Shown here: positions 12,701 through 35,040 of the stretch, piece after piece
How positions within the stretch are numbered: position 1 is the stretch's first letter
Layout of the letters: every line of letters begins with the position of its first letter
Source of the DNA: Nemertoderma westbladi
Taxonomy: Eukaryota; Animalia; Xenacoelomorpha
DNA length: 35,040 nucleotides
Reading direction: 5' to 3'
Assembly: GCA_032718475.1 (NCBI GenBank)
Contig: JAUCBJ010009075.1
Span: 1 to 35,040, forward strand
Translations under genes and position numbers: made by a program
Notes under the pieces: generated by a model
What the model saw: only the letters and a program-made list of their open reading frames with translations
The model's database searches: none
What the model was told of the DNA's origin: nothing

Positions 12701-15700
12701 CTCTCCATTCTCCCCAATATTGGTTTTAGTTAAGAGGCTCTCCATTCTCCCCAATATTGGTTTTAGTTAAGAGGCTCTCCATTCTCCCCAATATTGGTTT
12801 TAGTTAAGAGGCTCTCCATTCTCCCCAATATTGGTTTTAGTTAAGAGGCTCTCCATTCTCCCCAATATTGGTTTTAGTTAAGAGGCTCTCCATTCTCCCC
12901 AATATTGGTTTTAGTTAAGAGGCTCTCCATTCTCCCCAATATTGGTTTTAGTTAAGAGGCTCTCCATTCTCCCCAATATTGGTTTTAGTTAAGAGGCTCT
13001 CCATTCTCCCCAATATTGGTTTTAGTTAAGAGGCTCTCCATTCTCCCCAATATTGGTTTTAGTTAAGAGGCTCTCCATTCTCCCCAATATTGGTTTTAGT
13101 TAAGAGGCTCTCCATTCTCCCCAATATTGGTTTTAGTTAAGAGGCTCTCCATTCTCCCCAATATTGGTTTTAGTTAAGAGGCTCTCCATTCTCCCCAATA
13201 TTGGTTTTAGTTAAGAGGCTCTCCATTCTCCCCAATATTGGTTTTAGTTAAGAGGCTCTCCATTCTCCCCAATATTGGTTTTAGTTAAGAGGCTCTCCAT
13301 TCTCCCCAATATTGGTTTTAGTTAAGAGGCTCTCCATTCTCCCCAATATTGGTTTTAGTTAAGAGGCTCTCCATTCTCCCCAATATTGGTTTTAGTTAAG
13401 AGGCTCTCCATTCTCCCCAATATTGGTTTTAGTTAAGAGGCTCTCCATTCTCCCCAATATTGGTTTTAGTTAAGAGGCTCTCCATTCTCCCCAATATTGG
13501 TTTTAGTTAAGAGGCTCTCCATTCTCCCCAATATTGGTTTTAGTTAAGAGGCTCTCCATTCTCCCCAATATTGGTTTTAGTTAAGAGGCTCTCCATTCTC
13601 CCCAATATTGGTTTTAGTTAAGAGGCTCTCCATTCTCCCCAATATTGGTTTTAGTTAAGAGGCTCTCCATTCTCCCCAATATTGGTTTTAGTTAAGAGGC
13701 TCTCCATTCTCCCCAATATTGGTTTTAGTTAAGAGGCTCTCCATTCTCCCCAATATTGGTTTTAGTTAAGAGGCTCTCCATTCTCCCCAATATTGGTTTT
13801 AGTTAAGAGGCTCTCCATTCTCCCCAATATTGGTTTTAGTTAAGAGGCTCTCCATTCTCCCCAATATTGGTTTTAGTTAAGAGGCTCTCCATTCTCCCCA
13901 ATATTGGTTTTAGTTAAGAGGCTCTCCATTCTCCCCAATATTGGTTTTAGTTAAGAGGCTCTCCATTCTCCCCAATATTGGTTTTAGTTAAGAGGCTCTC
14001 CATTCTCCCCAATATTGGTTTTAGTTAAGAGGCTCTCCATTCTCCCCAATATTGGTTTTAGTTAAGAGGCTCTCCATTCTCCCCAATATTGGTTTTAGTT
14101 AAGAGGCTCTCCATTCTCCCCAATATTGGTTTAGTTAAGAGGCTCTCCATTCTCCCCAATATTGGTTTTAGTTAAGAGGCTCTCCATTCTCCCCAATATT
14201 GGTTTTAGTTAAGAGGCTCTCCATTCTCCCCAATATTGGTTTTAGTTAAGAGGCTCTCCATTCTCCCCAATATTGGTTTTAGTTAAGAGGCTCTCCATTC
14301 TCCCCAATATTGGTTTTAGTTAAGAGGCTCTCCATTCTCCCCAATATTGGTTTTAGTTAAGAGGCTCTCCATTCTCCCCAATATTGGTTTTAGTTAAGAG
14401 GCTCTCCATTCTCCCCAATATTGGTTTTAGTTAAGAGGCTCTCCATTCTCCCCAATATTGGTTTTAGTTAAGAGGCTCTCCATTCTCCCCAATATTGGTT
14501 TTAGTTAAGAGGCTCTCCATTCTCCCCAATATTGGTTTTAGTTAAGAGGCTCTCCATTCTCCCCAATATTGGTTTTAGTTAAGAGGCTCTCCATTCTCCC
14601 CAATATTGGTTTTAGTTAAGAGGCTCTCCATTCTCCCCAATATTGGTTTTAGTTAAGAGGCTCTCCATTCTCCCCAATATTGGTTTTAGTTAAGAGGCTC
14701 TCCATTCTCCCCAATATTGGTTTTAGTTAAGAGGCTCTCCATTCTCCCCAATATTGGTTTTAGTTAAGAGGCTCTCCATTCTCCCCAATATTGGTTTTAG
14801 TTAAGAGGCTCTCCATTCTCCCCAATATTGGTTTAGTTAAGAGGCTCTCCATTCTCCCCAATATTGGTTTTAGTTAAGAGGCTCTCCATTCTCCCCAATA
14901 TTGGTTTTAGTTAAGAGGCTCTCCATTCTCCCCAATATTGGTTTTAGTTAAGAGGCTCTCCATTCTCCCCAATATTGGTTTTAGTTAAGAGGCTCTCCAT
15001 TCTCCCCAATATTGGTTTTAGTTAAGAGGCTCTCCATTCTCCCCAATATTGGTTTTAGTTAAGAGGCTCTCCATTCTCCCCAATATTGGTTTTAGTTAAG
15101 AGGCTCTCCATTCTCCCCAATATTGGTTTTAGTTAAGAGGCTCTCCATTCTCCCCAATATTGGTTTTAGTTAAGAGGCTCTCCATTCTCCCCAATATTGG
15201 TTTTAGTTAAGAGGCTCTCCATTCTCCCCAATATTGGTTTTAGTTAAGAGGCTCTCCATTCTCCCCAATATTGGTTTTAGTTAAGAGGCTCTCCATTCTC
15301 CCCAATATTGGTTTTAGTTAAGAGGCTCTCCATTCTCCCCAATATTGGTTTTAGTTAAGAGGCTCTCCATTCTCCCCAATATTGGTTTTAGTTAAGAGGC
15401 TCTCCATTCTCCCCAATATTGGTTTTAGTTAAGAGGCTCTCCATTCTCCCCAATATTGGTTTTAGTTAAGAGGCTCTCCATTCTCCCCAATATTGGTTTT
15501 AGTTAAGAGGCTCTCCATTCTCCCCAATATTGGTTTTAGTTAAGAGGCTCTCCATTCTCCCCAATATTGGTTTTAGTTAAGAGGCTCTCCATTCTCCCCA
15601 ATATTGGTTTTAGTTAAGAGGCTCTCCATTCTCCCCAATATTGGTTTTAGTTAAGAGGCTCTCCATTCTCCCCAATATTGGTTTTAGTTAAGAGGCTCTC

Positions 15701-18700
15701 CATTCTCCCCAATATTGGTTTTAGTTAAGAGGCTCTCCATTCTCCCCAATATTGGTTTTAGTTAAGAGGCTCTCCATTCTCCCCAATATTGGTTTTAGTT
15801 AAGAGGCTCTCCATTCTCCCCAATATTGGTTTTAGTTAAGAGGCTCTCCATTCTCCCCAATATTGGTTTTAGTTAAGAGGCTCTCCATTCTCCCCAATAT
15901 TGGTTTTAGTTAAGAGGCTCTCCATTCTCCCCAATATTGGTTTTAGTTAAGAGGCTCTCCATTCTCCCCAATATTGGTTTTAGTTAAGAGGCTCTCCATT
16001 CTCCCCAATATTGGTTTTAGTTAAGAGGCTCTCCATTCTCCCCAATATTGGTTTTAGTTAAGAGGCTCTCCATTCTCCCCAATATTGGTTTTAGTTAAGA
16101 GGCTCTCCATTCTCCCCAATATTGGTTTTAGTTAAGAGGCTCTCCATTCTCCCCAATATTGGTTTTAGTTAAGAGGCTCTCCATTCTCCCCAATATTGGT
16201 TTTAGTTAAGAGGCTCTCCATTCTCCCCAATATTGGTTTTAGTTAAGAGGCTCTCCATTCTCCCCAATATTGGTTTTAGTTAAGAGGCTCTCCATTCTCC
16301 CCAATATTGGTTTTAGTTAAGAGGCTCTCCATTCTCCCCAATATTGGTTTTAGTTAAGAGGCTCTCCATTCTCCCCAATATTGGTTTTAGTTAAGAGGCT
16401 CTCCATTCTCCCCAATATTGGTTTTAGTTAAGAGGCTCTCCATTCTCCCCAATATTGGTTTTAGTTAAGAGGCTCTCCATTCTCCCCAATATTGGTTTTA
16501 GTTAAGAGGCTCTCCATTCTCCCCAATATTGGTTTTAGTTAAGAGGCTCTCCATTCTCCCCAATATTGGTTTTAGTTAAGAGGCTCTCCATTCTCCCCAA
16601 TATTGGTTTTAGTTAAGAGGCTCTCCATTCTCCCCAATATTGGTTTTAGTTAAGAGGCTCTCCATTCTCCCCAATATTGGTTTTAGTTAAGAGGCTCTCC
16701 ATTCTCCCCAATATTGGTTTTAGTTAAGAGGCTCTCCATTCTCCCCAATATTGGTTTTAGTTAAGAGGCTCTCCATTCTCCCCAATATTGGTTTTAGTTA
16801 AGAGGCTCTCCATTCTCCCCAATATTGGTTTTAGTTAAGAGGCTCTCCATTCTCCCCAATATTGGTTTTAGTTAAGAGGCTCTCCATTCTCCCCAATATT
16901 GGTTTTAGTTAAGAGGCTCTCCATTCTCCCCAATATTGGTTTTAGTTAAGAGGCTCTCCATTCTCCCCAATATTGGTTTTAGTTAAGAGGCTCTCCATTC
17001 TCCCCAATATTGGTTTAGTTAAGAGGCTCTCCATTCTCCCCAATATTGGTTTTAGTTAAGAGGCTCTCCATTCTCCCCAATATTGGTTTAGTTAAGAGGC
17101 TCTCCATTCTCCCCAATATTGGTTTTAGTTAAGAGGCTCTCCATTCTCCCCAATATTGGTTTTAGTTAAGAGGCTCTCCATTCTCCCCAATATTGGTTTT
17201 AGTTAAGAGGCTCTCCATTCTCCCCAATATTGGTTTTAGTTAAGAGGCTCTCCATTCTCCCCAATATTGGTTTTAGTTAAGAGGCTCTCCATTCTCCCCA
17301 ATATTGGTTTTAGTTAAGAGGCTCTCCATTCTCCCCAATATTGGTTTAGTTAAGAGGCTCTCCATTCTCCCCAATATTGGTTTTAGTTAAGAGGCTCTCC
17401 ATTCTCCCCAATATTGGTTTTAGTTAAGAGGCTCTCCATTCTCCCCAATATTGGTTTTAGTTAAGAGGCTCTCCATTCTCCCCAATATTGGTTTTAGTTA
17501 AGAGGCTCTCCATTCTCCCCAATATTGGTTTTAGTTAAGAGGCTCTCCATTCTCCCCAATATTGGTTTTAGTTAAGAGGCTCTCCATTCTCCCCAATATT
17601 GGTTTTAGTTAAGAGGCTCTCCATTCTCCCCAATATTGGTTTTAGTTAAGAGGCTCTCCATTCTCCCCAATATTGGTTTTAGTTAAGAGGCTCTCCATTC
17701 TCCCCAATATTGGTTTTAGTTAAGAGGCTCTCCATTCTCCCCAATATTGGTTTTAGTTAAGAGGCTCTCCATTCTCCCCAATATTGGTTTTAGTTAAGAG
17801 GCTCTCCATTCTCCCCAATATTGGTTTTAGTTAAGAGGCTCTCCATTCTCCCCAATATTGGTTTTAGTTAAGAGGCTCTCCATTCTCCCCAATATTGGTT
17901 TTAGTTAAGAGGCTCTCCATTCTCCCCAATATTGGTTTTAGTTAAGAGGCTCTCCATTCTCCCCAATATTGGTTTTAGTTAAGAGGCTCTCCATTCTCCC
18001 CAATATTGGTTTTAGTTAAGAGGCTCTCCATTCTCCCCAATATTGGTTTTAGTTAAGAGGCTCTCCATTCTCCCCAATATTGGTTTTAGTTAAGAGGCTC
18101 TCCATTCTCCCCAATATTGGTTTTAGTTAAGAGGCTCTCCATTCTCCCCAATATTGGTTTTAGTTAAGAGGCTCTCCATTCTCCCCAATATTGGTTTTAG
18201 TTAAGAGGCTCTCCATTCTCCCCAATATTGGTTTAGTTAAGAGGCTCTCCATTCTCCCCAATATTGGTTTTAGTTAAGAGGCTCTCCATTCTCCCCAATA
18301 TTGGTTTTAGTTAAGAGGCTCTCCATTCTCCCCAATATTGGTTTTAGTTAAGAGGCTCTCCATTCTCCCCAATATTGGTTTTAGTTAAGAGGCTCTCCAT
18401 TCTCCCCAATATTGGTTTTAGTTAAGAGGCTCTCCATTCTCCCCAATATTGGTTTTAGTTAAGAGGCTCTCCATTCTCCCCAATATTGGTTTTAGTTAAG
18501 AGGCTCTCCATTCTCCCCAATATTGGTTTTAGTTAAGAGGCTCTCCATTCTCCCCAATATTGGTTTTAGTTAAGAGGCTCTCCATTCTCCCCAATATTGG
18601 TTTTAGTTAAGAGGCTCTCCATTCTCCCCAATATTGGTTTAGTTAAGAGGCTCTCCATTCTCCCCAATATTGGTTTTAGTTAAGAGGCTCTCCATTCTCC

Positions 18701-21085
18701 CCAATATTGGTTTTAGTTAAGAGGCTCTCCATTCTCCCCAATATTGGTTTTAGTTAAGAGGCTCTCCATTCTCCCCAATATTGGTTTTAGTTAAGAGGCT
18801 CTCCATTCTCCCCAATATTGGTTTTAGTTAAGAGGCTCTCCATTCTCCCCAATATTGGTTTTAGTTAAGAGGCTCTCCATTCTCCCCAATATTGGTTTTA
18901 GTTAAGAGGCTCTCCATTCTCCCCAATATTGGTTTTAGTTAAGAGGCTCTCCATTCTCCCCAATATTGGTTTTAGTTAAGAGGCTCTCCATTCTCCCCAA
19001 TATTGGTTTTAGTTAAGAGGCTCTCCATTCTCCCCAATATTGGTTTAGTTAAGAGGCTCTCCATTCTCCCCAATATTGGTTTTAGTTAAGAGGCTCTCCA
19101 TTCTCCCCAATATTGGTTTTAGTTAAGAGGCTCTCCATTCTCCCCAATATTGGTTTTAGTTAAGAGGCTCTCCATTCTCCCCAATATTGGTTTTAGTTAA
19201 GAGGCTCTCCATTCTCCCCAATATTGGTTTTAGTTAAGAGGCTCTCCATTCTCCCCAATATTGGTTTTAGTTAAGAGGCTCTCCATTCTCCCCAATATTG
19301 GTTTTAGTTAAGAGGCTCTCCATTCTCCCCAATATTGGTTTTAGTTAAGAGGCTCTCCATTCTCCCCAATATTGGTTTTAGTTAAGAGGCTCTCCATTCT
19401 CCCCAATATTGGTTTTAGTTAAGAGGCTCTCCATTCTCCCCAATATTGGTTTTAGTTAAGAGGCTCTCCATTCTCCCCAATATTGGTTTTAGTTAAGAGG
19501 CTCTCCATTCTCCCCAATATTGGTTTTAGTTAAGAGGCTCTCCATTCTCCCCAATATTGGTTTTAGTTAAGAGGCTCTCCATTCTCCCCAATATTGGTTT
19601 TAGTTAAGAGGCTCTCCATTCTCCCCAATATTGGTTTTAGTTAAGAGGCTCTCCATTCTCCCCAATATTGGTTTTAGTTAAGAGGCTCTCCATTCTCCCC
19701 AATATTGGTTTTAGTTAAGAGGCTCTCCATTCTCCCCAATATTGGTTTTAGTTAAGAGGCTCTCCATTCTCCCCAATATTGGTTTTAGTTAAGAGGCTCT
19801 CCATTCTCCCCAATATTGGTTTTAGTTAAGAGGCTCTCCATTCTCCCCAATATTGGTTTTAGTTAAGAGGCTCTCCATTCTCCCCAATATTGGTTTAGTT
19901 AAGAGGCTCTCCATTCTCCCCAATATTGGTTTTAGTTAAGAGGCTCTCCATTCTCCCCAATATTGGTTTAGTTAAGAGGCTCTCCATTCTCCCCAATATT
20001 GGTTTTAGTTAAGAGGCTCTCCATTCTCCCCAATATTGGTTTTAGTTAAGAGGCTCTCCATTCTCCCCAATATTGGTTTTAGTTAAGAGGCTCTCCATTC
20101 TCCCCAATATTGGTTTTAGTTAAGAGGCTCTCCATTCTCCCCAATATTGGTTTTAGTTAAGAGGCTCTCCATTCTCCCCAATATTGGTTTTAGTTAAGAG
20201 GCTCTCCATCTCCCCAATGGTTGTTAGAGGCTCCATCTCCCAATATTGGTTTAGTTAAGAGGCTCTCCATTCTCCCCAATATTGGTTTTAGTTAAGAGGC
20301 TCTCCATTCTCCCCAATATTGGTTTTACAGTAGTTAAGAGGCTCTCCATTCTCCCCAATATTGGTTTTAGTTAAGAGGCTCTCCATTTTCCCCAATATTG
20401 GTTTTAGTTAAGAGGCTCTCCATTCTCCCCAATATTGGTTTTAGTTAAGAGGCTCTCCATTCTCCCCAATATTGGTTTAGTTAAGAGGCTCTCCATTCTC
20501 CCCAATATTGGTTTAGTTAAGAGGCTCTCCATTCTCCCCAATATTGGTTTTAGTTAAGAGGCTCTCCATTCTCCCCAATATTGGTTTTAGTTAAGAGGCT
20601 CTCCATTCTCCCCAATATTGGTTTTAGTTAAGAGGCTCTCCATTCTCCCCAATATTGGTTTTAGTTAAGAGGCTCTCCATTCTCCCCAATATTGGTTTAG
20701 TTAAGAGGCTCTCCATTCTCCCCAATATTGGTTTAGTTAAGAGGCTCTCCATTCTCCCCAATATTGGTTTTAGTTAAGAGGCTCTCCATTCTCCCCAATA
20801 TTGGTTTTAGTTAAGAGGCTCTCCATTCTCCCCAATATTGGTTTAGTTAAGAGGCTCTCCATTCTCCCCAATATTGGTTTTAGTTAAGAGGCTCTCCATT
20901 CTCCCCAATATTGGTTTAGTTAAGAGGCTCTCCATTCTCCCCAATATTGGTTTTAGTTAAGAGGCTCTCCATTCTCCCCAATATTGGTTTAGTTAAGAGG
21001 ATCTCCATTCTCCCCAATATTGGTTTAGTTAAGAGGCTCTCCATTCTCCCCAATATTGGTTTAGTTAAGAGGCTCCCCATTCTCC
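9764..21085 (+). repeat. 37-bp satellite array, about 300 copies, nearly invariant
   Basis: Unit CCAATATTGGTTTTAGTTAAGAGGCTCTCCATTCTCC, head-to-tail with no spacers. It starts just left of the gap. Occasional 36-bp (T3) variants are enriched near the right end. Confidence 0.99.
9787..9886. other. Assembly gap (100 N)
   Basis: Run of N; a standard placeholder size, so the true length is unknown. Confidence 0.99.
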
Positions 21086-21971: not shown

Positions 21972-23187
21972 TCACCCTCTCCCTCACCTCTCCCTCACCC
22001 CTCCCTCACCTCCTCCCTCACCCTCTCCCTCCCCTCTCCCTCACCCTCTCCCTCACCCTCCCTCACCCCTCCCTCCCCTCACCCTCCCTCACCCTCCCCT
22101 CTCCCTCACCCTCTCCCTCACCTCTCCCTCACCCCTCCCTCCCCCTCCCTCACCCCTCCCTCCCTCCCCTCACCCTCACCCTCTCCCTCACCCTCTCCCT
22201 CTCCCTCTCCCTCACCCTCCCCTCCCTCTCCCTCTCCCTCCCCTCCCCTCACCCTCTCCCTCACCTCTCCCTCACCCTCTCCCTCACCCTCTCCCTCACC
22301 CTCTCCCTCACCTCTCCCTCACCCTCTCCCTCACCCTCACCCTCCCCCTCACCTCTCCCTCACCCTCACCCTCCCTCACCCTCTCCCTCACCCTCCCTCA
22401 CCCTCTCCCTCCCCTCTCCCTCACCCTCTCCCTCCCCTCACCCTCACCCTCACCCTCTCCCTCACCCTCCCCCTCCCTCCCCTCTCCCTCCCCCTCCCTC
22501 ACCCTCTCCCTCCCCTCTCCCTCACCCTCTCCCTCTCCCTCACCTCTCCCTCACCCTCTCCCTCACCCTCACCCTCTCCCTCACCTCTCCCTCACCCTCT
22601 CCCTCACCCTCCCCTCCCTCACCCTCCCTCTCCCTCACCTCTCCCTCACCCTCTCCCTCACCCTCACCCTCTCCCTCACCTCTCCCTCACCCTCACCCTC
22701 ACCCTCTCCCTCACCCTCACCCTCTCCCTCACCCTCTCCCTCCTCCCCTCACCCTCCCTCCCCTCACCCTCACCCTCTCCCTCACCCTCACCCTCTCCCT
22801 CACCCTCTCCCTCTCCCTCTCCCTCTCCCTCTCCCTCCCCTCCCCTCTCCCTCCCCTCTCCCTCACCTCTCCCTCACCCTCTCCCTCACCCTCACCCTCT
22901 CCCTCACCTCTCCCTCACCCTCTCCCTCACCCTCACCTCTCCCTCACCTCTCCCTCTCCCTCACCTCCCCTCACCCTCTCCCTCACCCTCACCCTCTCCC
23001 TCACCTCTCCCTCACCCTCCCCTCACCCCTCCCTCACCCTCACCCTCTCCCTCACCCTCTCCCTCTCTCTCTCCCTCACCTCTCCCTCACCCTCTCCCTC
23101 TCCCTCTCCCTCTCCCTCCCCTCACCCTCTCCCTCACCCTCACCCTCTCCCTCTCCCTCACCTCTCCCTCACCCTCACCCTCACCCT
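21972..23187 (+). repeat. 1.2-kb low-complexity (CCCTCA/CCCTCT)n tract
   Basis: G-free C/T/A hexamer-based repeat; it explains the spurious Pro/Ser-rich ORF 21855-23210. Confidence 0.95.
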
Positions 23188-23188
23188 T

Positions 23189-23770
23189 GAATTTCACGTT
23201 GACAACGTGAAGAAAGATAATGCAAAACTACGCAGCGAGGTAGAAGGTTGTAAAGATGTTATAGCAAAACAGCAGCGTCAACTAGAAGTTTTTGACACTG
23301 ACAGAAGATCGAAGAATATAATTATTCGTGGGATACCAGAAATAAATCCAGAAGTAGATCGCGCATTTTCAATAAAGATATTGAAGATTGCCGGCATGGA
23401 GAACCCTAACAACGTTTCGTTTAGACGATTAGGACGACAGTCAGATACAACTAATGGGACACAACAGGGTGGGAGTGCCCCGAGTCGTCCTCGACCGGTG
23501 TTAGTTGAGCTGGAGTCTCGCTATATTCGTGATAAGCTACTAGTTGGTGCCAAATCGTTGTCTAAGGCAGGAGAGGAATTTCACAACGTATATATTAAAC
23601 GAGATGAGATACCCCAGACCCTTGAAATGAATAGCAAACTGTATAAAGCGCTGCACGAGGAGAAACAGAAGCCCGTCAATATCAATGCAAACGTATTTAT
23701 TAACTGGCGTACAAGGTGTGTGATGAGGGATAATACTGTATTATTTCAGGTACCCAAATTGGGTTTTTAA
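23189..23770 (+). CDS. LINE ORF1 C-terminal part (coiled coil plus L1-type RRM/CTD); N-terminus missing
   Basis: [13 protein letters not shown]...RRLG...RPRPVLVEL...RDKLL..AK.L...VYIKRD motifs typical of non-LTR ORF1p. The frame continues upstream into the CT repeat with no ATG. Confidence 0.85.
23761..23767 (+). promoter_or_regulatory. Putative -1 ribosomal frameshift slippery site G_GGT_TTT
   Basis: ORF1 ends ttG GGT TTT TAA. ORF2 is in the -1 frame, open from 23734, and has no ATG until 24154. Confidence 0.6.
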
Positions 23771-26223
23771 TAGGGCCGTGTGTAGATCTTAACATTCTTT
23801 GGTTTAATATCGCTGGAATTCAGAATAAGTTAGAAAATAGAAATACTGTACACTTTTTACTCCAATTTGACATTATATTTTTATTGGAAATTAATAGTGC
23901 TTTGAATTTTACTGTACCTGGGCTCAAGTTTTTAAAGCGAAGTAAAATTTTACAAGGCAGAGGCCACCGTGGCGGTGTGGCTCTATTTGCCAAACCGTTT
24001 TTAGAGGATTTTATTACTGAAATAAAAGACAATTATGAGGACCAGTTGTGGATAAAAATACCTACCGTAGATTCAAGGTATATCGGAGGATGTTACATCC
24101 CCAATAGCAGTTCAAAATTTTTTGATATATCATGTTTTGGGATTATTCAGGGTATGTTTATGTCTGGGGATGCCCTATTGGCCGGAGGTGATTTAAACAG
24201 TAGAATTGGTTACCCCGGTTGCCAACCGCTGGATGGGGCCTATAAAACCTGGCCAGATAATACTGTAAATAGCCATGGGAAAATATTGAAACAAATGTGT
24301 ACTGACACGGATGCAGTTATTGTGAACGGTTTAAAAGTACCATCATGTGATTTTCAGAGTGGTCTAACTTATAAAATAAAAGGAGTATGGAAGTCAGCTT
24401 TGGACTATATAATAGTAGCGAGGTCTCACGTAGAAGGTCCCAACAATAAACTCAGGTCATTAACTATTTGGTCTGACATAACCTTACCATCTGATCATGC
24501 ACCAATTAGTATATCTATTAGAGCAAACGAGATGCCTCTGGCACTATTAGATAAGCGAGCAACGAGTTTAGGTACCTATGACAATTACCTTAAAAGAGGG
24601 CACGAGGTAGCACATCGATTGAAGCCAAACCAAAACAGTGTATCCAACTATACCCAGTATATGCGAGTCAATAACCCACCGCCGTCATTGAGTATGAACA
24701 TGAGTGATGTGCATTTCATTTGTAACGAACTTAGTAACCAATTATATGCTGCAGCAAAAACAACCCGTTGTAGGATAAAGGCGAGAGCTGGCAGTACCGA
24801 CACCACATCTTGGGGGAATGAGAGGTGGAACCACTTACTTGCATGTAAAGACTCTAAAACGTTATGGGCTGCCATTGATTGGAGAGGTAATGTATCTACG
24901 CTGTCAACTCAAACAGATAGTCCAACATGCCCAACAGACGATGAATTTCAAGCTCATTACAATGCGCTATTAAATGATCCTGAGTATATAGAAGAGCAAA
25001 TTGAATCTGAAATTAATATCCCTCTTTTAGATGAAGATATAACAATCAATGAAGTCAATGACGCAGCCTCGAAACTGAAATCGAACCGTGCTAGCGGTCC
25101 AGATGGATTGGCATCCGAATATTTGAAATCACTTCCAATGAACTGGCTGATTACTTTAACAATGATATTTAACTTGGTATTCTCTTCTAGAATTTACCCG
25201 AACACATGGGCATATGCTACACTTGTGTCAATCTTTAAGAAAGGAAATCGAATGTTATGTTCGAATTATAGGGGGATCAGTGTCATGAACTGTATACCTA
25301 AGCTTTATGATATGATATTAACTAGTAGGCTCATGGCCTGGTATAAACCATTACCTGAGCAAGCAGGTGCTAGTAAGGGCCGAGGATGTATTGAGCAAAT
25401 ACTGGCGATACGATTGCTTTGTGATCATGCGAGGAAATGTAAAGCTATACTCTATGTGGTCTTTGTAGATTTCGAAAAGGCCTATGACAATGTTAATCGT
25501 AACTACATGTTTGAAATGTTGAATAAGCTTGGTTGTGGTTCTAGAATGCTTAGAGCTTTACAGGCTATGTATAAGACAACTATTGCTTCAGTCCACTCAC
25601 TATATATTATTTGTAATAAAGGCGTCCGCCAAGGTTCACCAGGAAGCTTATACTTGTTCGTAACCATTATTGATTGTTTTGTAAGAGCACTTAAAAAGCT
25701 CCCACCCGATAGCTGGCTCAGAAAGCTCCACAGTGTACTACTTATGGATGATACTGCAATAATGGGAACATCTAGGGAGGCAATTATTGTGAAATTAAAA
25801 GTGCTTGAGGAATTCTGCCGGACTTCTGGGATGATCATCAATATTAAGAAAACCAAATTTATTGTAATAAACGGAACTGACGATGACAAACGCGACTTCA
25901 TTATTGGGAACAAAGCAATAAAATATACAAATTCATATATATATCTGGGCTCACCTATTTCTGCAGACGGTTTAGTTTCAACCGCAATAGAGCTGATAGC
26001 AAAGGAGAAACAGTCGCACTTATTGAAATTCTCTACATTCATCAATAAGAACCCTGATGTACCATTCCGTGTGAAAAGGAAAATTTTTGATGCTGCCTTA
26101 GTATCAGCAATTACATATGGGTGCGAAACATGGTGCGGTGGGTCAATAGTTCCAATGACGAAGATTTACATGTCAATGGTACGTCTGTTATTGGGTGTCC
26201 GACCAACAACGTGTGGCGACATT
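23761..26223 (+). CDS. Outer LINE ORF2, 5' part: AP endonuclease and reverse transcriptase
   Basis: APE motifs ILWFNIAG, DIIFLLE, GGVA, GGDLNSR, LDYII, SDHAPI. RT motifs NYRGIS, EQAG, FVDFEKAYD, GVRQG, LMDD, YLG. The true frame starts upstream of the ORF-track start at 23884. Confidence 0.92.
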
Positions 26224-26418
26224 TATTATATATTATATTATATTGTTTTAATTCCTGTACATAGATAAAATGTAAATGGGAATAGTAAAACCAAATGCAT
26301 CATTAAAACATGCTAAATAAGTAAGTAAGTAATAAGTATAAAGTCTTTGACAAATTAAATAAAATTACATTAAGTATAGATGATATAAGAAATTAAATAA
26401 TAAACATTGGACATTAAC

Positions 26419-29400
26419 TCAGTCGAAAAATAACGGCATCTCATTACTAATAAGGTATCGTATGGCCATAGGTGCAAATGAGTTCTGAAATAATTTCGTA
26501 CGAACGTTTGGCATTGTGTATTTGCTGCGAGTTGAGGTGGACGTTGACTTGGAGGCCATGATAAAATCATGTAAGGGGTGTCGGGGTGTGGCCATAATCT
26601 TGTTAACCATGTTGACAAATTGAGTGGAGAATGCGTCATTAATATATTTTAAGTACACATGTTTATCTATCTTAGAGTGCCTTGCGTACAGTGATATTGG
26701 TTTACGCAGCTTCTTTCTTAGACTGGATGGTGTAAGAGGGACCCAAGCCACAGAACAGTACAAATAGTGTGGTGCAATGTACGTTTGGAATAGAAATATT
26801 TTAGTCTTTTTACTCGCAAACCGAATGAAGAAGCTGAACTGGCGGACTATGTAGTTAACTTTTTTTATTAAGTTAGAGACATGGATTTTCCATGACATAT
26901 TATCTGATATCCACACTCCCAGATGTTTCACCACAGCTGGTCGTGGTACGACATTACCCCCAATTGTAATCCTTTCCTTTGCAATATCTACGATTTTAGA
27001 GTCTTTGAAATTTATTGGAATGAAGCACAGTTCCTCAGACTTCTTTGTGTTCAGCTTCAAGTTTTTCTTTAATGACAAATCTACAATTTTCTTAATACTT
27101 AGCTCATATTTATCATTATCTTTTGAACAACTAATAGAGTACAAGCAACGAGAATCGTCAGAATACTTGGCAAGGGAACCATCTTCTTCTCTAATTTCAT
27201 CTGTATCTTTCGTAAACAATGGACCGCTTAGAGGACCACCTTGAGGAAATCCAACTTTTAGAGTTATTGTAGGAGATATAATTCTACCAGATTTAACGCA
27301 TTGAGAGAAGTTACTCATATAAGACTGTAACCAAGTCACCAACCAGCGCATATCTGTAGGCAGTTCGTCTAACAGTTTGTTCAAGAATCTGTTCTGCAGT
27401 ACAGTATTAAAAGCAGAGGAGTAATCTATGAATAGGCATTTTACGATTGTGTGCCTTTTGTCTAGTGCTCCCGTAATTTGGTGTAATAAATAAAGCACTG
27501 CATCCGCAGTTGAATAATCCTTTTTGTACGCAAATTGGAAGATGTCATCGCTATCTACTGTTGCAGTACGGAAAATTCCTAGTGCAATCCTGTCGAGGAT
27601 CCTTGAGCTTAGTGGAGTAACACATACAGGCCTGAAACTCGTTTTATCTGAGATAGATGAGTTGTGTCTTTTGGGTAAAGCAGATGTTAGCGCAGAGTTC
27701 CAATTTTGAGGATATTTTTGGAGTTGAAAGCTGCCATTAAAAAGGGAGGCATATGGTATTGAAAGTTCCCTAGCGAATGTTTTATAGCAAGTTGATGATA
27801 TAATGCTACTTCCTTGGGCAGTATTTGATTTCAATTTACGGATTTGATGTTCAACTTCAAGAGGCTCAATGACTTTCACATTATTCTCATAGCTAACTCC
27901 TTTGTACGTTGGTTCATCTTTGTCCACGTCTTCATTAAACCTAGTAAAGAACTCATTTAGACTCTCAACTTCTTTCGCATCAAATGTATGAATTTTATGT
28001 TTGTTCTTGAGGCAGTTGCTTGATAGCTTATATATTTGATCTTTTGACATACTGCTAAAATCTGATTGACGTTTGTTAAATATTAATTTATTAATCTTTC
28101 TCTGGCACTCATTTCGCTTGGCATTATCTCTATTCACAATAGCAAGCCTTTTTTCTTCCATTAGTTCCCTAATACCCTTGATCGGCTGCCGCATATTAAA
28201 CTTCCTGGTTTTAATCTTTGTCAAGGGTAAGTGTCGATCAATTACATACTTTATATAGCTTTCAGTTGTTTCTACATTTTCATCTAGACTCTGGGTTTCA
28301 TCATAGAAAATATTCCAGTCTGTCTCTTGAAACACTTGTCGCACTTCAGCAACTTTGTCCGAACTAAAAACCTGAATTCTTTTGTAACATGATTTTGGTT
28401 TATAGATGTTCCTACAGTCAATTTTAGGCTTAAGTAGAATAGTCTTATGGCCATGGTCTGAGTTACCAATAGGAGCAATTATTAAACATTTGTAAGGGGA
28501 TGCTGCAGTGACGTAAGCGACATCCAACTGAGATTCTGAGCGAGTGAAAGTGAAAGTGGGTTCATCAATCATATTCACTAAATTCAGGGAGTCTAAGTAG
28601 TTCAATTTCGGCTGGTTGACATCTCCAATCACAATTAAAAAGCCCCTAGGATTCGAAACCATGATCGTGCTCATCATTTTACGAAGTTCTTTTCTCGAAA
28701 TTGCTCGATTTGCCTTAGGCCGTATGTAAATATTGATAATGATGATACAGCTATACTGTGATGGAAGATATCTTGGACGACATAATACACCTAAAGCTTC
28801 TATATGAGGTGATGAAATGGAGGTAACCATGGTGGGTCTGGTATTACACCATAGTTTGCTCACATATGTAACCAGACCACCACCACCATTCTCCTCAAAT
28901 TTTGATAGGTCTCTATCATGCCGAAAGAGATAGAAATTGTCCAGTTCAATACTACCATCTGATACATCATTCTGCAGTTTGGATTCTTGTATTGTAACCA
29001 CAGTCACATTATTGTATAGTACAACTAATTCACACAAAATAACGTGTTTACCTTGAAGCCCATTGACATTGTTGTTTAAAATGAATGGTAGCGACAACCA
29101 CTCAGTGGGAAGGTTAGTAGAACCGACGCCATCTTGGGGGGAGGCGGGCTGTGACGCACTTGGTGTTGCTGAATTAATCGAACCGGTGCCCCCTCGTGAG
29201 GAGGGGGACTGTGACGCGCTTAGTGTTGCTGAATTAATCGAACCGGTGCCCCCTTGGGAGGAGGGGGGCTGTGACGCAATCAGAGTTGATGAATTAATCA
29301 AACCGGTGCCCCCTCGGGGGGAGGGGGGCTGTGAGGTGCACCCTCGGGGGGAGGGGGACTGTGACGCAATTAGTGTTGCTGAATTAATCGAACCAGGGCC

Positions 29401-32100
29401 CCCTCGGGAGGAGGGGGGCTGTGACACAGTTAGAGTTGCTGAATTAATCGAACCGGTGCCCCCTCGGGAGGAGGGGGGCTGTGACGCAATTAGTGTTGCT
29501 GAATTAATCGAACCAGGGCCCCCTCGGGGGGAGGGGGGCTGTGAGGAGCACCCTCGGGAGGAGGGGGACTGTGACGCAATTAGTGTTGCTGAATTAATCA
29601 AACCGGTGCCCCCTCGGGGGGATGAGGGTTGTGAGGAGCACCCTCGGGAGGAGGGGGACTGTGATGCAATTAGTGTTGCTGAATTAATCGAACCGGTGCC
29701 CCCTCTGGAGGAGGGGGGCTGTGACGCAATCAGAGTTGCTGAATTAATCAAACCGGTGCCCCCTCGGGAGGAGGGGGACTGTGACGCAATTAGTGTTGCT
29801 GAATTAATCGAACCAGGGCCCCCTCGGGAGAAGGGGGGCTGTGACGCAATTAGAGTTGCCAAATTAATCGAACCGGTACCCCCTCGGGAGGAGGGGGGCT
29901 GTGACGCAATTAGAGTTGCTGAATTAATCGAACCGGTGCCCCCTCGGGAGGAGGGGGGCTGTGACGCAATCAGAGTTGCTGAATTAATCAAACCGGTGCC
30001 CCCTCGGGGGGAGGGGGGCTGTGAGGTGCACCCTCGGGGGGAGGGGGACTGTGACGCAATTAGTGTTGCCGAATTAATCGAACCAGGGCCCCCTCGAGAG
30101 GAGGGGGACTGTGACGCAATTAGAGTTGCCGAATTAATCGAACCGGTACCCCCTCGGGAGTAGGGGGGCTGTGACGCAATTAGAGTTGCTGAATTAATCG
30201 AACCGGTGCCCCCTCGGGAGGAGGGGGGCTGTGACGCAATTAGAGTTGCCGAATTAATCGAACCGGTGCCCCCTCGGGAGGAGGGGGGCTGTGACGCAAT
30301 TAGAGTTGCTGAATTAATCGAACCGGTGCCCCCTTGGGAGGAGGGGGGATGTGACGCAATCAGAGTTGCTGAATTAATCAAACCGGTGCCCCCTCGGGGG
30401 GAGGGGGGCTGTGAGGTGAACCCTCGGGAGGAGGGGGACTGTGACGCAATTAGAGTTGCTGAATTAGTCAAACCGGTGCCCCCTCGAGAGGAGGGGGGCT
30501 GTGACGCAATTAGAGTTGCCGAATTAATCGAACCGGTGCCCCCTCGAGAGGAGGGGGGCTGTGACGCAATTAGAGTTGCCGAATTAATCGAACCGGTACC
30601 CCCTCGGGAGTAGGGGGGCTGTGACGCAATTAGAGTTGCCGAATTAATCGAACCAGGGCCCCCTCGAGAGGAGGGGGGCTGTGACGCAATTAGAGTTGCC
30701 GAATTAATCGAACCGGTACCCCCTCGGGAGTAGGGGGGCTGTGACGCAATTAGAGTTGCTGAATTAATCGAACCGGTGCCCCCTCGGGAGGAGGGGGGCT
30801 GTGACGCAATTAGAGTTGCCGAATTAATCGAACCGGTGCCCCCTCGGGAGGAGGGGGGCTGTGACGCAATTAGAGTTGCTGAATTAATCGAACCGGTACC
30901 CCCTCGGGAGGAGGGGGGCTGTGACGCAATTAGAGTTGCCGAATTAATCGAACCGGTACCCCCTCGGGAGGAGGGGGGCTGTGACGCAATTAGAGTTGCT
31001 GAATTAATCAAACCGGTGCCCCCTCGGGAGGAGGGGGGCTGTGAGGTGTACCCTCGGGAGGAGGGGGGCTGTGACGCAATTAGAGTTGCCGAATTAATCA
31101 AACTGGTGCCCCCTCGGGAGGAGGGGGGCTGTGACGCAATTAGAGTTGCCGAATTAATCGAACCGGTGCCCCCTCGGGAGTAGGGGGGCTGTGACGCAAT
31201 TAGAGTTGCCGAATTAATCGAACCGGTACCCCCTCGGGAGGAGGGGGGCTGTGACGCAATTAGAGTTGCCGAATTAATCGAACCGGTACCCCCTCGGGAG
31301 GAGGGGGGCTGTGACGCAATTTGAGTTGCCGAATTAATCGAACCAGTACCCCCTCGGGAGGAGGGGGGCTGTGACGCAATTAGAGTTGCTGAATTAATCA
31401 AACCGGTGCCCCCTCGGGGGGAGGGGGGCTGTGAGGTGTACCCTCGGGAGGAGGGGGGCTGTGACGCAATTAGAGTTGCTGAATTAATCGAACCGGTACC
31501 CCCTCGGGAGGAGGGGGGCTGTGACGCAATTAGAGTTGCCGAATTAATCGAACCAGTGCCCCCTCGGGAGGAGGGGGGCTGTGACGCAATTAGAGTTGCC
31601 GAATTAATCGAACCGGTGCCCCCTCGGGAGGAGGGGGGCTGTGACGCAATTAGAGTTGCTGAATTAATCGAACTGGTGCCCCCTCGGGAGGAGGGGGGCT
31701 GTGACGCAATTCGAGTTGCTGAATTAATCGAACTGGTGCCCCCTCGGGAGGAGGGGGGCTGTGACGCAATTAGAGTTGCCGAATTAATCGAACCAGTGCC
31801 CCCTCGGGAGGAGGGGGGCTGTGACGCATTTAGAGTTACCGAATTAATCGAACCGGTGCCCCCTCGGGAGGAGGGGGGCTGTGACGCAATTAGAGTTGCC
31901 GAATTAATCGAACCGGTACCCCCTCGGGGGGAGGAGGGCTGTGACGCAATTAGAGTTGCCGAATTAATCGAACCGGTGCCCCCTCGGGAGGAGGGGGGCT
32001 GTGACGCAATTAGAGTTGCCGAATTAGTTGATCCGGCGCCCCCTCGGGAGGAGGGGGCACGCAACACAATATTACTACTGGAAAGGTGGGGGGAATGTAG
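26419..32100 (-). CDS. Inner LINE ORF2: repeat linker of about 980 aa, AP endonuclease and reverse transcriptase
   Basis: APE motifs NNVNGL, IQES, GGGGLVTYV...WC, CRPRYLP, GDVN, QLD, SDH. RT motifs FRPV, FQFAY, FIDYSSAFNT, GFPQG, KYSDD, LNTKKSEE, HLGV. C-terminal HPLH...RT..FQNSF.P.AIR is typical of Rex1/Babar. The frame is open from immediately after the ORF1 stop; first ATG only at 28830. Confidence 0.92.
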   Translation of the reverse strand, partial: LHSPHLSSSNIVLRAPSSRGGAGSTNSATLIASQPPSSRGGTGSINSATLIASQPSSPRGGTGSINSATLIASQPPSSRGGTGSINSVTLNASQPPSSRGGTGSINSATLIASQPPSSRGGTSSINSATRIASQPPSSRGGTSSINSATLIASQPPSSRGGTGSINSATLIASQPPSSRGGTGSINSATLIASQPPSSRGGTGSINSATLIASQPPSSRGYTSQPPSPRGGTGLINSATLIASQPPSSRGGTGSINSATQIASQPPSSRGGTGSINSATLIASQPPSSRGGTGSINSATLIASQPPYSRGGTGSINSATLIASQPPSSRGGTSLINSATLIASQPPSSRGYTSQPPSSRGGTGLINSATLIASQPPSSRGGTGSINSATLIASQPPSSRGGTGSINSATLIASQPPSSRGGTGSINSATLIASQPPSSRGGTGSINSATLIASQPPYSRGGTGSINSATLIASQPPSSRGGPGSINSATLIASQPPYSRGGTGSINSATLIASQPPSSRGGTGSINSATLIASQPPSSRGGTGLTNSATLIASQSPSSRGFTSQPPSPRGGTGLINSATLIASHPPSSQGGTGSINSATLIASQPPSSRGGTGSINSATLIASQPPSSRGGTGSINSATLIASQPPYSRGGTGSINSATLIASQSPSSRGGPGSINSATLIASQSPSPRGCTSQPPSPRGGTGLINSATLIASQPPSSRGGTGSINSATLIASQPPSSRGGTGSINLATLIASQPPFSRGGPGSINSATLIASQSPSSRGGTGLINSATLIASQPPSSRGGTGSINSATLIASQSPSSRGCSSQPSSPRGGTGLINSATLIASQSPSSRGCSSQPPSPRGGPGSINSATLIASQPPSSRGGTGSINSATLTVSQPPSSRGGPGSINSATLIASQSPSPRGCTSQPPSPRGGTGLINSSTLIASQPPSSQGGTGSINSATLSASQSPSSRGGTGSINSATPSASQPASPQDGVGSTNLPTEWLSLPFILNNNVNGLQGKHVILCELVVLYNNVTVVTIQESKLQNDVSDGSIELDNFYLFRHDRDLSKFEENGGGGLVTYVSKLWCNTRPTMVTSISSPHIEALGVLCRPRYLPSQYSCIIIINIYIRPKANRAISRKELRKMMSTIMVSNPRGFLIVIGDVNQPKLNYLDSLNLVNMIDEPTFTFTRSESQLDVAYVTAASPYKCLIIAPIGNSDHGHKTILLKPKIDCRNIYKPKSCYKRIQVFSSDKVAEVRQVFQETDWNIFYDETQSLDENVETTESYIKYVIDRHLPLTKIKTRKFNMRQPIKGIRELMEEKRLAIVNRDNAKRNECQRKINKLIFNKRQSDFSSMSKDQIYKLSSNCLKNKHKIHTFDAKEVESLNEFFTRFNEDVDKDEPTYKGVSYENNVKVIEPLEVEHQIRKLKSNTAQGSSIISSTCYKTFARELSIPYASLFNGSFQLQKYPQNWNSALTSALPKRHNSSISDKTSFRPVCVTPLSSRILDRIALGIFRTATVDSDDIFQFAYKKDYSTADAVLYLLHQITGALDKRHTIVKCLFIDYSSAFNTVLQNRFLNKLLDELPTDMRWLVTWLQSYMSNFSQCVKSGRIISPTITLKVGFPQGGPLSGPLFTKDTDEIREEDGSLAKYSDDSRCLYSISCSKDNDKYELSIKKIVDLSLKKNLKLNTKKSEELCFIPINFKDSKIVDIAKERITIGGNVVPRPAVVKHLGVWISDNMSWKIHVSNLIKKVNYIVRQFSFFIRFASKKTKIFLFQTYIAPHYLYCSVAWVPLTPSSLRKKLRKPISLYARHSKIDKHVYLKYINDAFSTQFVNMVNKIMATPRHPLHDFIMASKSTSTSTRSKYTMPNVRTKLFQNSFAPMAIRYLISNEMPLFFD
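29121..32060 (-). repeat. In-frame 60-bp (20-aa) tandem repeat, about 45 full units plus 7 interspersed 30-bp half units
   Basis: Encodes SQPPSSRGGTGSINSATLIA. Half units such as SQPPSSRGYT lie near 29331, 29541, 29631, 30021, 30411, 31041 and 31431. No 1-2-bp indels seen. Confidence 0.97.
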
Positions 32101-32103
32101 TCA
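32098..32103 (-). promoter_or_regulatory. Putative stop-codon readthrough signal TGA-CTA
   Basis: Minus strand reads GTC GAT TGA CTA CAT TCC...; ORF1 and ORF2 are in the same frame, separated only by this TGA. Confidence 0.65.
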
Positions 32104-33219
32104 ATCGACCTGACCCACCACATCAATTCCCTCACTTTCGTTTGTCTGAGATTGACTGGCACGGGTGACAGGACGCTTGAGAAACGCAGAGTCAACGACG
32201 GCACCGCGATATATAACCCAATCTTTTCCTGGTTTCGCTGCAGCCATGGACCGCCGTTCTTGTCGGAGTGAGTACTGCAGTTTGTTCTCAGCCAGGGTGT
32301 AGTCTGGCGTTATATATATATGGCTGTATCTTTGAGACTTTCTTAGATTTCGAGCTTTTTGAAGCAGGAGGAGGCGTTTTTCAGGTGATAGAGTAACAAC
32401 GATTGGTTGTTTATTCTCTCGCAGCCTCCCGACTCGCTTGGTTTTTATTTCAGATTCTTCAAGATTGATATCAATCTCGTTCGCTATATCTATGATAAAG
32501 TGTTTATCATTAGATACCGGTGGATTGCAAGGTCCACCTCTGATCACAATGTTAGAACTTCGTCTCAACTGTTCTGCTTCCTCGTCTTTTATCTGCTTAG
32601 AGAGAAGAGCGAGATTTGACGCATTCGGAGCAACATTACGTTTATTCCGTTTTGATGTAGCTACCTCTATCCAGGCACCATCTTCAACTACCTCCGATAG
32701 CAAGCGTTTTTGATCGTTAGTGTGTGCATTCGTCTGTAGAGATTCTAATTTGCACTCCGTATTGTTGTTTTTAGTTTCATTCTCGTTACACTGCAATTGG
32801 AGTTGTTCTAATTTCTGCTCTAGTAATAGAATATCCTCATCTCTAGAGGTTGTTACCATTTCAAGCCGCGAAAGTTTATCTTGTATCTTCGTATCCAAAT
32901 CTTGGAGATCCTTGGAGAACTTGTTAAAGTATCTCGCAGCGCAACATCCACAATAGAAGTCAACGCGACCCCATTGCGTTCCCGGTTTGGCAATACATAT
33001 TAATGACACTGTACAGTTCGAGCCCGAGCAGCCAACCTCGTATTCCTTCTGGCCATCTTTCCTGTCAGAACTACCGGTATTCGAGTTTTGTTTTCCCGAA
33101 ACACGCGAGTTTTTACTGCCGGTTTCGGAACCACTTACGATACTGCCACGGCGCGATTTATCTACCGCGGTAGTTTGTAGTAGATCTGTGGGCCTACTTG
33201 ACCTGCGATCTGAACTCAT
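32101..33219 (-). CDS. Inner LINE ORF1 (372 aa: Cys-rich segment, coiled coil, L1-type RRM/CTD)
   Basis: ATG in context AAGATGA; CSGSNC...C...FYCGCC; heptad-rich region; RRSSNIVIRG...RVGR...PIVVTL...KARNLR...IYITPDYT. Confidence 0.9.
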   Translation of the reverse strand: MSSDRRSSRPTDLLQTTAVDKSRRGSIVSGSETGSKNSRVSGKQNSNTGSSDRKDGQKEYEVGCSGSNCTVSLICIAKPGTQWGRVDFYCGCCAARYFNKFSKDLQDLDTKIQDKLSRLEMVTTSRDEDILLLEQKLEQLQLQCNENETKNNNTECKLESLQTNAHTNDQKRLLSEVVEDGAWIEVATSKRNKRNVAPNASNLALLSKQIKDEEAEQLRRSSNIVIRGGPCNPPVSNDKHFIIDIANEIDINLEESEIKTKRVGRLRENKQPIVVTLSPEKRLLLLQKARNLRKSQRYSHIYITPDYTLAENKLQYSLRQERRSMAAAKPGKDWVIYRGAVVDSAFLKRPVTRASQSQTNESEGIDVVGQVD

Positions 33220-33400
33220 CTTATATTTCTTCTTCTACGCAATTTTTTTTTTTTTTAACATCTATTTGTTTAGAGTTCTCCTTGGGGTATCAGGGTATAT
33301 CATATATAATATCAATATTTCAGTATATAGCAGGTCAGTAACATAGGCCTACCTGAAGGCAATAGGCGTCTACCATGTCAGTATGTCGACTACAAACTTT

Positions 33401-33994
33401 TGCCTGATCGAGCTCGGTATTCCTGACTTTGAGACTTTAGTCCTGGAAAAACAACGAAAATTCTTAAATAACTTCACTATTGTCGATGATTCCCCTCTAA
33501 AGATAGCTATGGAACTCGTTGAAGTTTCTAAAAGTCCAATGTACCTTTCTATGGAGAGGGTAAGGAAACTGCCCAATAATTACCTTGATCAGCAGCATTC
33601 AAAACTCACGAAATCGGTAGTAACATCAATGACAACAAAACGTCACCTTTATAAACTAATGAACCCTACTACGTCACCACCTCATTTATACTTTGATCCA
33701 AGGGTTCCAGAACGTCATAGGATATCCTGGTCCCGCTTCAGATTAGGCAGCCACAATTTCCCAGTTGAACGAATGCGGTGGGCGAGAGTGAAACCAGAGG
33801 AGCGTTGGTGTCAGTGCGGGGCAATTCAAACTGAACAGCACTTAGTTACGGAGTGTCCTAAAACACTGAAACATAGAACAGAGACAGAGGGGTGTACTGG
33901 AACGGCTTGGAACGATCTGGCTAGTTTATTTGCTTTGGAAAACCAGCCTGCTATAGCCAAAATGATTTATAAAATAAACGGCGAATTTGATTGA
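33401..33994 (+). CDS. Outer LINE ORF2, displaced 3' part (C-terminal CCHC domain)
   Basis: CLIELGIP continues LLGVRPTTCGD(I) from 26223; SRFRLGSHNFPVE...WCQCGAIQTEQHLVTECP. The ORF-track start MSTTNF comes from the antisense 5' end of the inner LINE. Confidence 0.9.
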   Translation, partial: CLIELGIPDFETLVLEKQRKFLNNFTIVDDSPLKIAMELVEVSKSPMYLSMERVRKLPNNYLDQQHSKLTKSVVTSMTTKRHLYKLMNPTTSPPHLYFDPRVPERHRISWSRFRLGSHNFPVERMRWARVKPEERWCQCGAIQTEQHLVTECPKTLKHRTETEGCTGTAWNDLASLFALENQPAIAKMIYKINGEFD

Positions 33995-35040
33995 TATTTT
34001 GAAAGAATTTTCTATTTGAAAGGTTGAACATATTTGGTTTTTGTATCTTAGTTTCATGACAATTTATTTATTTGAAAATTTAAGTAAGTGAAGTTTCTTT
34101 TACGGAGCCCCTGAAGTTTTCATTAGTTTTCGACAATGAATCGATTATTATATATATATATATTATAATAAAAATAAAATAATAGGAAGGCATTTTATAC
34201 AACCATGTTCAGCATGATCCGGTCTCTTAAATATAATTTTGAGTTGAACGAATTATGTTTTTGACAGACCAATATCAAGCAAGTAAAATTATTTGGAAAC
34301 AGAGAAACAACATGTTCCTATCTGTTCAACCGTAAGTAGTCATCGTTTTATTTAAGCAGGGACACAAAGCGCAACCCTGTTTAAATACTGTAAGTAAAAT
34401 TATCACATTGGTTACATTTTTGCATATGTGTTTCGCCGGGATTTGGCTCATCAGCTACACTAACCCGTGCAGGACACATGTTAATCCAACTAACTACACC
34501 AAAACCCAGCTAAACACACTGTAAAAGCCTTTGCTGAATTGCCCCGTTATTTTTATTATCTTTTACATTAAAATACTCTGTAGTTGATTTAATAAGTGTA
34601 AGAGACCGTATTATTACTGTATCGGTGTTTTTAGAGGATCTAAGACTTATTTCCTCCGTATGTGTATTGTGAAAGGTATATTTTATGATTCTATGGCAAT
34701 TTGTGACGCAAAGGAGTGATAGCTACTCTTGAACAGTAGTTACTATGACTACGGTTAACAGCTGACATTCATACGTGTTGATTTCCTTTGTTCTACGGCG
34801 TCTCTCAGCTCAGTCAGCCAATGAGAGCGTTTTTGTGGCTCCTTGTACAGAGAATTTCCGAGAAATGACGAAATGCCTATGTGCAGTGTTTATTCATTCA
34901 GTCTTGAGCCAAAGAAAGAACGGCTTAGAAATATTTTGTGCTGTACTGCTTTTTAGTCGTACACTGGTAGGTTTAATTATAAAAGGGCATATATCCTTTA
35001 ACTGCAAACTGACTACTTGAATATCTCATGCCTATGTGCA

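Follow-up and report, generated by a model that had tools for sequence, protein, structure and literature searches.

We analysed a window of 35,040 nucleotides (nt) from Nemertoderma westbladi (assembly GCA_032718475.1, contig JAUCBJ010009075.1, positions 1 to 35,040; "the window" hereafter means this whole stretch), whose reverse strand carries an intact, low-copy long interspersed nuclear element (LINE) related to the Rex1 group. Judging from its sequence, this LINE, in which an L1-type first open reading frame (ORF1) lies in frame with the second (ORF2), probably produces its enzyme through sporadic readthrough at a UGA-CUA stop. Most ribosomes would stop at the UGA and release abundant ORF1 protein (ORF1p), and occasional readthrough would yield a rare fusion of 2,266 amino acids (aa) that joins ORF1, a repeat linker, the endonuclease (EN) and the reverse transcriptase (RT). 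The linker, predicted to be disordered, could act as a tether, and the enzyme would join the ORF1p particle through the ORF1 part of the fusion. Readthrough would explain at once the common frame, the UGACUA context and its retention, the triplet length of the repeat units and the missing AUG. All coordinates of the element given below are on the reverse (-) strand.

An in-frame UGA-CUA junction without a nearby AUG

ORF1 (32101..33219) starts with the ATG at 33219 and runs for 372 codons to a TGA at 32103-32101, which is followed by the codons CTA and CAT. The hexamer TGA CTA (32098..32103) is a type II readthrough context (PMC13517186). From 32100 on, the frame has no further stop for 1,893 codons, until the TGA at 26421-26419, and the arrangement is that of type II readthrough, with the downstream ORF in the frame of the leaky stop. 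Past the ORF1 stop, 1,090 codons (about 3.3 kb) go by without an in-frame ATG before the one at 28830. The motifs NVNGL (29070) and IQES (28992) precede this ATG, and GDVN, SDH, the RT motifs and YSDD come after it; a product begun there would lose endonuclease motifs I and II, which we take, from the L1 endonuclease, to bear catalytic residues. A preliminary description of this DNA had reported the two ORFs in one frame with a single TGA followed by CTA, a fusion of about 2266 aa, and an ORF2 without ATG until 28830, past NVNGL and IQES; the frame analysis, the computed read-through length and the motif positions agree with it on all these points. Some non-canonical start or extension into ORF2 must occur. 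An in-frame GTG (32067) and TTG (32064) are present 33-36 nt past the ORF1 stop. The 2A/StopGo motif D(V/I)ExNPGP, as in recoded LINEs (PMC3708506), has no match in the 2,266 aa, and UGGGA is absent from the 200 nt upstream of the ORF1 stop.

The whole element, of about 7.2 kb (26222..33398), lies inside ORF2 of another LINE, and its ends are ambiguous by at most one TTT triplet. The empty site, with 26221 joined to 33399, was seen in contigs of X1, X2 and X3, the sequencing runs whose contigs were compared, and the reading frame of the host LINE runs on across the insertion site. ORF1, linker and ORF2 therefore came in as one 7.2-kb insertion. A longer target-site duplication was looked for at the insertion ends and none was found.

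The stretch itself is present in 2 of 6 runs, one of them perhaps the run from which the window derives; both are identical across the ORF1 stop and possibly represent the same locus. A paralogue found in X1, X2 and X3 shows 131 differences across the 829 nt compared in ORF1 (about 84% identity); among the 40 of 142 differences that were listed, 22 fall at third positions, and 20 of the 34 changed codons are synonymous. The tail of the paralogue ORF1 is too diverged for alignment and is 18 nt shorter in X1 and X2 and 6 nt shorter in X3, the frame being kept through both lengths. The paralogue then realigns without gaps over an island at and just after the stop (32060..32110), with 7 differences in 51 nt. 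This comparison lists differences only away from the ends of the pieces. In the X3 piece (32060-32138), the single listed change is at 32093, 34 from an end, and positions 32094-32105 are at least as far in; TGA CTA CAT T is therefore unchanged in X3. In X1 and X2 the stop is too close to the piece end for direct reading. The loose ends, read by eye, show a homologous end of ORF1, and the next 30 nt of the paralogue are homologous to the beginning of the linker, free of stops and in the same frame. The UGA-CUA context is thus kept in one paralogue lineage, the one that has about 84% identity over ORF1.

The same comparison bears on the idea of one long ORF into which the TGA was brought by a recent nonsense mutation or by faulty assembly. 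The continuous frame would fit such an origin, and the window copy is apparently a single locus in X1, because an X1 contig runs through the 5' junction. However, the same TGA is found in a second sample (X2) and in the 16%-diverged paralogue (X3), and it is located where an L1-type ORF1 should end. A private mutation is rejected since the diverged paralogue shares the stop; this reading is largely refuted and we consider it hardly credible. The two tests of the preliminary description that concerned other copies, a stop private to this copy and a variable frame between ORF1 and ORF2, were both passed as far as the data go, as the stop is common to the diverged paralogue and the frame is kept there.

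The linker (29125..32059) is a minisatellite in the coding frame, which would encode about 1,000 aa rich in Ser, Gly, Pro and Thr. It comprises 52 units, of which 44 measure 60 bp and 8 measure 30 bp, and all of these lengths (52/52) are multiples of 3. No stop interrupts it in the ORF frame, versus 52 and 49 stops in the other two sense frames, and its sole open sense frame is that of ORF1 and the endonuclease. Its length is that of the window assembly; short-read contigs break in the array. A GC hairpin is predicted for each 60-bp unit, and windows of 300 nt in the linker have folding energies between -103 and -111 kcal/mol, whereas those elsewhere lie between -49 and -83. An array that folds so strongly would be expected to hinder scanning to a distant start, not elongation. 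The fold z-score after the stop (-4.1) is driven by the repeats and is hence not counted as evidence. The linker ends with a degenerate last repeat unit formed by CAAGATGGCG, a sequence that occurs once in the window (29127-29136), about 60 nt ahead of endonuclease motif I; the ATG within it belongs to the +1 frame, which closes after only 18 aa.

A Rex1-related ORF2 and an L1-like ORF1

Downstream of the linker, ORF2 encodes an apurinic/apyrimidinic endonuclease (APE) domain (28460..29100) with the motifs NVNGL, IQES, GDVN and SDH, in which the Pfam match to Exo_endo_phos_2 is weak (E 8e-4, below cut-off). A tether, the reverse transcriptase and a C-terminal region follow (26419..28459), with YSDD at 27165, a match to Pfam RVT_1 (E 2.5e-12) and a frame open to the final TGA. 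The 3' untranslated region (UTR; 26222..26418) is AT-rich and ends in short TAA/TAT-type repeats. The element has the features of an APE-type LINE: an endonuclease then an RT in a single ORF, no long terminal repeats (LTRs) and a simple-repeat 3' tail. In its 5' UTR (33220..33398) there are four upstream ATGs, whose frames span 8-13 aa, besides a donor-like site (33352). Another X3 contig, whose flanks differ, contains an exact match to 60 bp of this 5' UTR (33261-33320).

The six nearest full-length relatives of ORF2 are 34-38% identical to it, and the seven sequences form a starred clade in both an RT tree (52 rows) and an endonuclease tree (31 rows). In the endonuclease tree, the sister of this clade is a branch of Holothuria leucospilota proteins that carry a methionine and a basic N-terminal stretch, and the two together branch inside a 99% clade with fish loci that have Rex1-like 5' ends, the locus L001 and proteins with a Rex1-type N-terminus. 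Both trees are quick ones, and none of the named Rex1, L2, CR1 and RTE references is among their rows. The Rex1 label comes from a likeness, by eye, between the 5' ends of three loci (L001, L002 and L045) and labelled rows in the supplement of PMC13343379, the comparison covering 21 of 122 matching rows and the first 400 letters of each. Several Rex1 consensus rows in this supplement open with CAAGATGGCG. The affinity with Rex1 noted in the preliminary description holds on both grounds, the trees and the 5' ends, and by its sequence the element is Rex1-related, not canonical Rex1.

Among the seven proteins of this clade that reach the endonuclease, none has a called methionine before motif I, versus 24 of 33 distant proteins (Fisher P 0.0006); before P0107 and P0082 were moved to the Holothuria branch on the basis of the tree, the count was 1 of 9 versus 24 of 33 (P 0.0014). 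Two of the seven are called from a valine and are without the Rex1 basic stretch. Unlike the Rex1 hits and the supplement rows, our element has neither its own methionine nor a basic RGKRGG-type stretch ahead of motif I. Upstream of this motif, lysine and arginine account for 2 of 27 residues in P0001 and 1 of 22 in P0081, versus 9-14 of 35 in eight outgroup proteins.

We also considered the DNA around the closest relatives. Viral contigs yielded none (0 of 106 candidates), 80 of 92 loci were kept from metagenome contigs, and contigs of prokaryote genomes gave 30 loci; the full-length ones have 22-31% identity. One-ORF structures of Rex1 type are present among the loci listed from 24 of the 110. 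Twelve loci were checked for an upstream ORF starting with methionine: 11 have none longer than 71 aa and one (L009) has an ORF of 244 aa. The search for longer forms returned one distant PHD-EN-RT protein of 2,105 aa (P0157), outside the clade. Two side observations concern N-terminal extensions: P0157 is a single ORF with a long low-complexity N-terminal region and a PHD domain, and P0052, a distant LINE protein, has an N-terminal OTU-like domain below the cut-off.

ORF1 has a Cys-rich stretch, a long predicted helix (about aa 94-150), which appears only in a low-confidence model, and a region of the RRM-CTD kind found in L1 ORF1p. A two-sequence model of its C-terminal 140 aa (pLDDT 74) has human L1 ORF1p (2ykq) as top Foldseek match (E 7e-4, probability 1.0); the single-sequence model of the whole ORF1 was unusable (pLDDT 36). 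No Pfam family reaches the cut-off in ORF1, the leads from Atlas (Baculo_FP and Transposase_22) are both below 0.9, and the search for ORF1 homologues found none among 2,906 candidates. Type II (L1-like) ORF1 proteins consist of a coiled coil, an RRM and a CTD (PMC4120745), and on the basis of these models ORF1 belongs to this type. The peptide SSNIV(I/L)R occurs both at aa 221 of ORF1 (start of the RRM, about 32560) and just past the stop (about 32080), through an old duplication or chance.

We tentatively propose that a Rex1 branch captured an L1-type ORF1, lost the start codon it once had and today produces polymerase solely in a readthrough fusion of the Gag-Pol kind, with a hairpin-rich, length-variable, disordered repeat of 1,000 residues as the tether to ORF1p. 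If so, a two-gene LINE would have arisen from a one-gene ancestor whose one-gene sister is extant.

Routes from ORF1 to ORF2

The conserved island at and after the stop holds, besides the leaky context, the GTG and TTG codons, and it can also be read as a branch point (TTGAC), a pyrimidine tract and a CAG acceptor. The preliminary description had named a start at the GTG/TTG or splicing as findings that would refute readthrough; both keep some probability, and the likeness of the conserved block to a 3' splice site had been overlooked. Under termination-reinitiation without an AUG, a route put forward for mammalian L1, ribosomes would restart at GUG 32067 or UUG 32064 and make a separate linker-EN-RT protein. 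The in-frame position of these two codons suits such a restart, which would account for the missing AUG and the open linker, and in L1 the restart at ORF2 is unconventional and its own AUG dispensable (PMC5972666, PMC5009743). However, reinitiation does not need an in-frame stop in a leaky context, no UGGGA lies upstream, and no part of the paralogue is less conserved than the tail ahead of the stop; we regard this route as rather unlikely. Splicing of a minority of transcripts from a donor at ORF1 codon 6 (33202) to an acceptor at 32077 would instead remove ORF1 and its stop and bring the ORF1 AUG in frame with ORF2. The candidate acceptor uses the A of the TGA as branch A, 24 nt from the AG, followed by 15 pyrimidines out of 17 and a CAG, the exon starting at 32077. 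Among the 112 YAG sites of the non-repeat sense strand, it is the best and the only one with at least 15/17 pyrimidines, and together with the branch-like TTGAC at -24 it stands against a background of 1 in 674 sites with both features elsewhere in the window. The phase of the ORF1 donor matches, Rex1 elements live without ORF1 (PMC13343379), and spliced L1 RNAs are known (PMC5860796). Yet the only usable donor scores 0.0 on a rough matrix, although it is the best of 11 phase-matched ORF1 sites; the stronger donor of the 5' UTR has no in-frame ATG, its upstream ATG meeting a stop at the junction; and the pyrimidine tract is C-rich. Cis-preference would moreover give spliced genomic copies, and no contig joint at 32077 was found in the 4 DNA runs examined for joints, a weak argument in a low-copy family. 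Splicing would also turn the in-frame position and the CUA into coincidences, and we judge it unlikely. A start provided by spliced-leader trans-splicing, with a leader ending in AUG, was rejected: both acceptors directly precede a stop in that frame. Finally, ORF2 might be expressed from a separate internal transcript starting near the Rex1-like CAAGATGGCG at 29136, the array being promoter DNA, or the copy might be defective there. This sequence opens several Rex1 consensus rows (PMC13343379), is single in the window and lies just before motif I, but its ATG is out of frame and soon closed, the motif represents the last, degenerate unit of the repeat, it is exactly the endonuclease frame that stays open through the linker, and the sister proteins are without such a methionine; this origin is quite improbable.

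From the composition of the element, an in-frame junction with UGA followed by CUA or CGG is expected by chance in about 0.3% of cases. This rarity favours readthrough, yet a survey over many windows would meet a few such junctions by chance; the evidence from the paralogue and from the clade therefore carries the weight. Several results weigh against readthrough itself. A single paralogue lineage was seen, and 12 identical bases would be retained by chance with a probability of 0.12, 0.04 or 0.005 at a divergence of 16% (the ORF1 average), 24% (the third-position figure) or 36%, respectively; as a sign of selection the shared stop would be modest. The contrast between the island and its flanks (7/51 versus 22/60 differences, P 0.009) was drawn post hoc, from boundaries that the aligner had placed and from flanks counted by eye, and is given little weight. 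The conserved block is just as compatible with a 3' splice site, and its sole listed change in the paralogue keeps a pyrimidine and alters Ser to Phe. Neither a conserved downstream structure motif nor a pairing of the post-stop block with the 3' UTR was found: the best 15 long-range pairings (at least 10 contiguous pairs) involve the linker repeats and one ORF1 14-mer with 4 G-U pairs, none involves the 3' UTR, and Rfam has no match in 26000-35040. Of the 33 distinct variants in the linker, 12 are synonymous (10.8 expected) and none is a stop (1.2 expected; P about 0.3); coding selection on these repeats is neither significant nor demonstrable. The methionine count in the clade reflects gene-caller starts in contigs of 2.5-4.3 kb, to which broken copies may contribute, and a weak search found no long or fused relative of the clade.

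Known systems and neighbouring features

The preliminary description knew of no such strategy in Rex1/Babar elements. Readthrough of a LINE ORF1 stop has in fact been proposed, from consensus sequences, for the non-LTR Group 3 of Paramecium tetraurelia, where ORF1 and ORF2 also share one frame (PMC5405496); what is new here is a Rex1 lineage with an ORF1 and a very long repeat linker. Group 3 differs in forming a ciliate clade of its own, whose ORF1 has a zinc finger, and the available text of that source mentions neither a long repeat linker nor an experimental test. The UGA-CUA hexamer also stands ahead of the polymerase in Sindbis and related alphaviruses (nsP3/nsP4) and in PSIV (PMC13517186). 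Unlike these viral cases, our element is a retrotransposon, its +7 base is C and not the G of human UGACUAG, and no conserved stimulatory stem-loop was found. Mammalian L1 and silkworm SART1 share with it a bicistronic LINE RNA, and L1 ORF1p has the same RRM-CTD fold, but in both, reinitiation takes place at, or near, an ORF2 AUG that lies close to the stop of ORF1 (PMC5972666, PMC5009743), whereas our element has no AUG for 3.3 kb. The Candida albicans element Tca2 likewise has one in-frame UGA between its structural and enzyme genes (gag-UGA-pol), although it is an LTR element and its bypass is described as non-canonical (PMC3956500); this case may serve as a caution against taking every such junction for simple readthrough. 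With Rex1 (Rex1/Babar), a clade of CR1-group LINEs, the element shares the APE and RT, the absence of a clear target duplication and the clade placement of ORF2, but it differs in its L1-type ORF1 and repeat linker of 1,000 aa and in the missing basic N-terminus and methionine.

A vertebrate survey of 2026 knew of no Rex1 with an ORF1, a statement to which the apparent ORF1 of this Rex1 lineage runs counter (PMC13343379). Invertebrate Repbase entries may hold exceptions. In literature coverage that left most subscription papers outside, we found no measured LINE readthrough, no Rex1 with an ORF1 and no coding minisatellite before a LINE endonuclease. How the ORF2 protein is produced from a two-gene LINE RNA is settled for few elements. 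Here, the bases on which the three candidate mechanisms depend are distinct and all fall within 50 nt, so that short reporters could tell them apart, and the one-gene sister branch bears on how LINEs gain an ORF1 and then set the ratio of ORF1p to ORF2 protein.

The host LINE, on the forward strand, also has no ATG before its endonuclease (23734-23770), its first methionine being at aa 141. In this LINE, ORF1 is overlapped by an ORF2 that lies in the -1 frame, and a slippery-type heptamer (G_GGU_UUU, 23761) stands in the phase of ORF1 just before the stop; the hairpin downstream is weak (-6.5 kcal/mol), and the site is a candidate for -1 frameshifting. Upstream (21972-23187, forward strand), a 1.2-kb purine-poor hexamer microsatellite lies in an open frame that runs into the C-terminal domain of the host ORF1. 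The window also contains a 37-bp satellite with 303 copies and 99% matches (9887-21085) and, on the reverse strand, an open frame of 681 aa (2-2044), charged then Asn-rich, which runs off the window, has no Pfam match and is possibly gag-like, from a retroelement.

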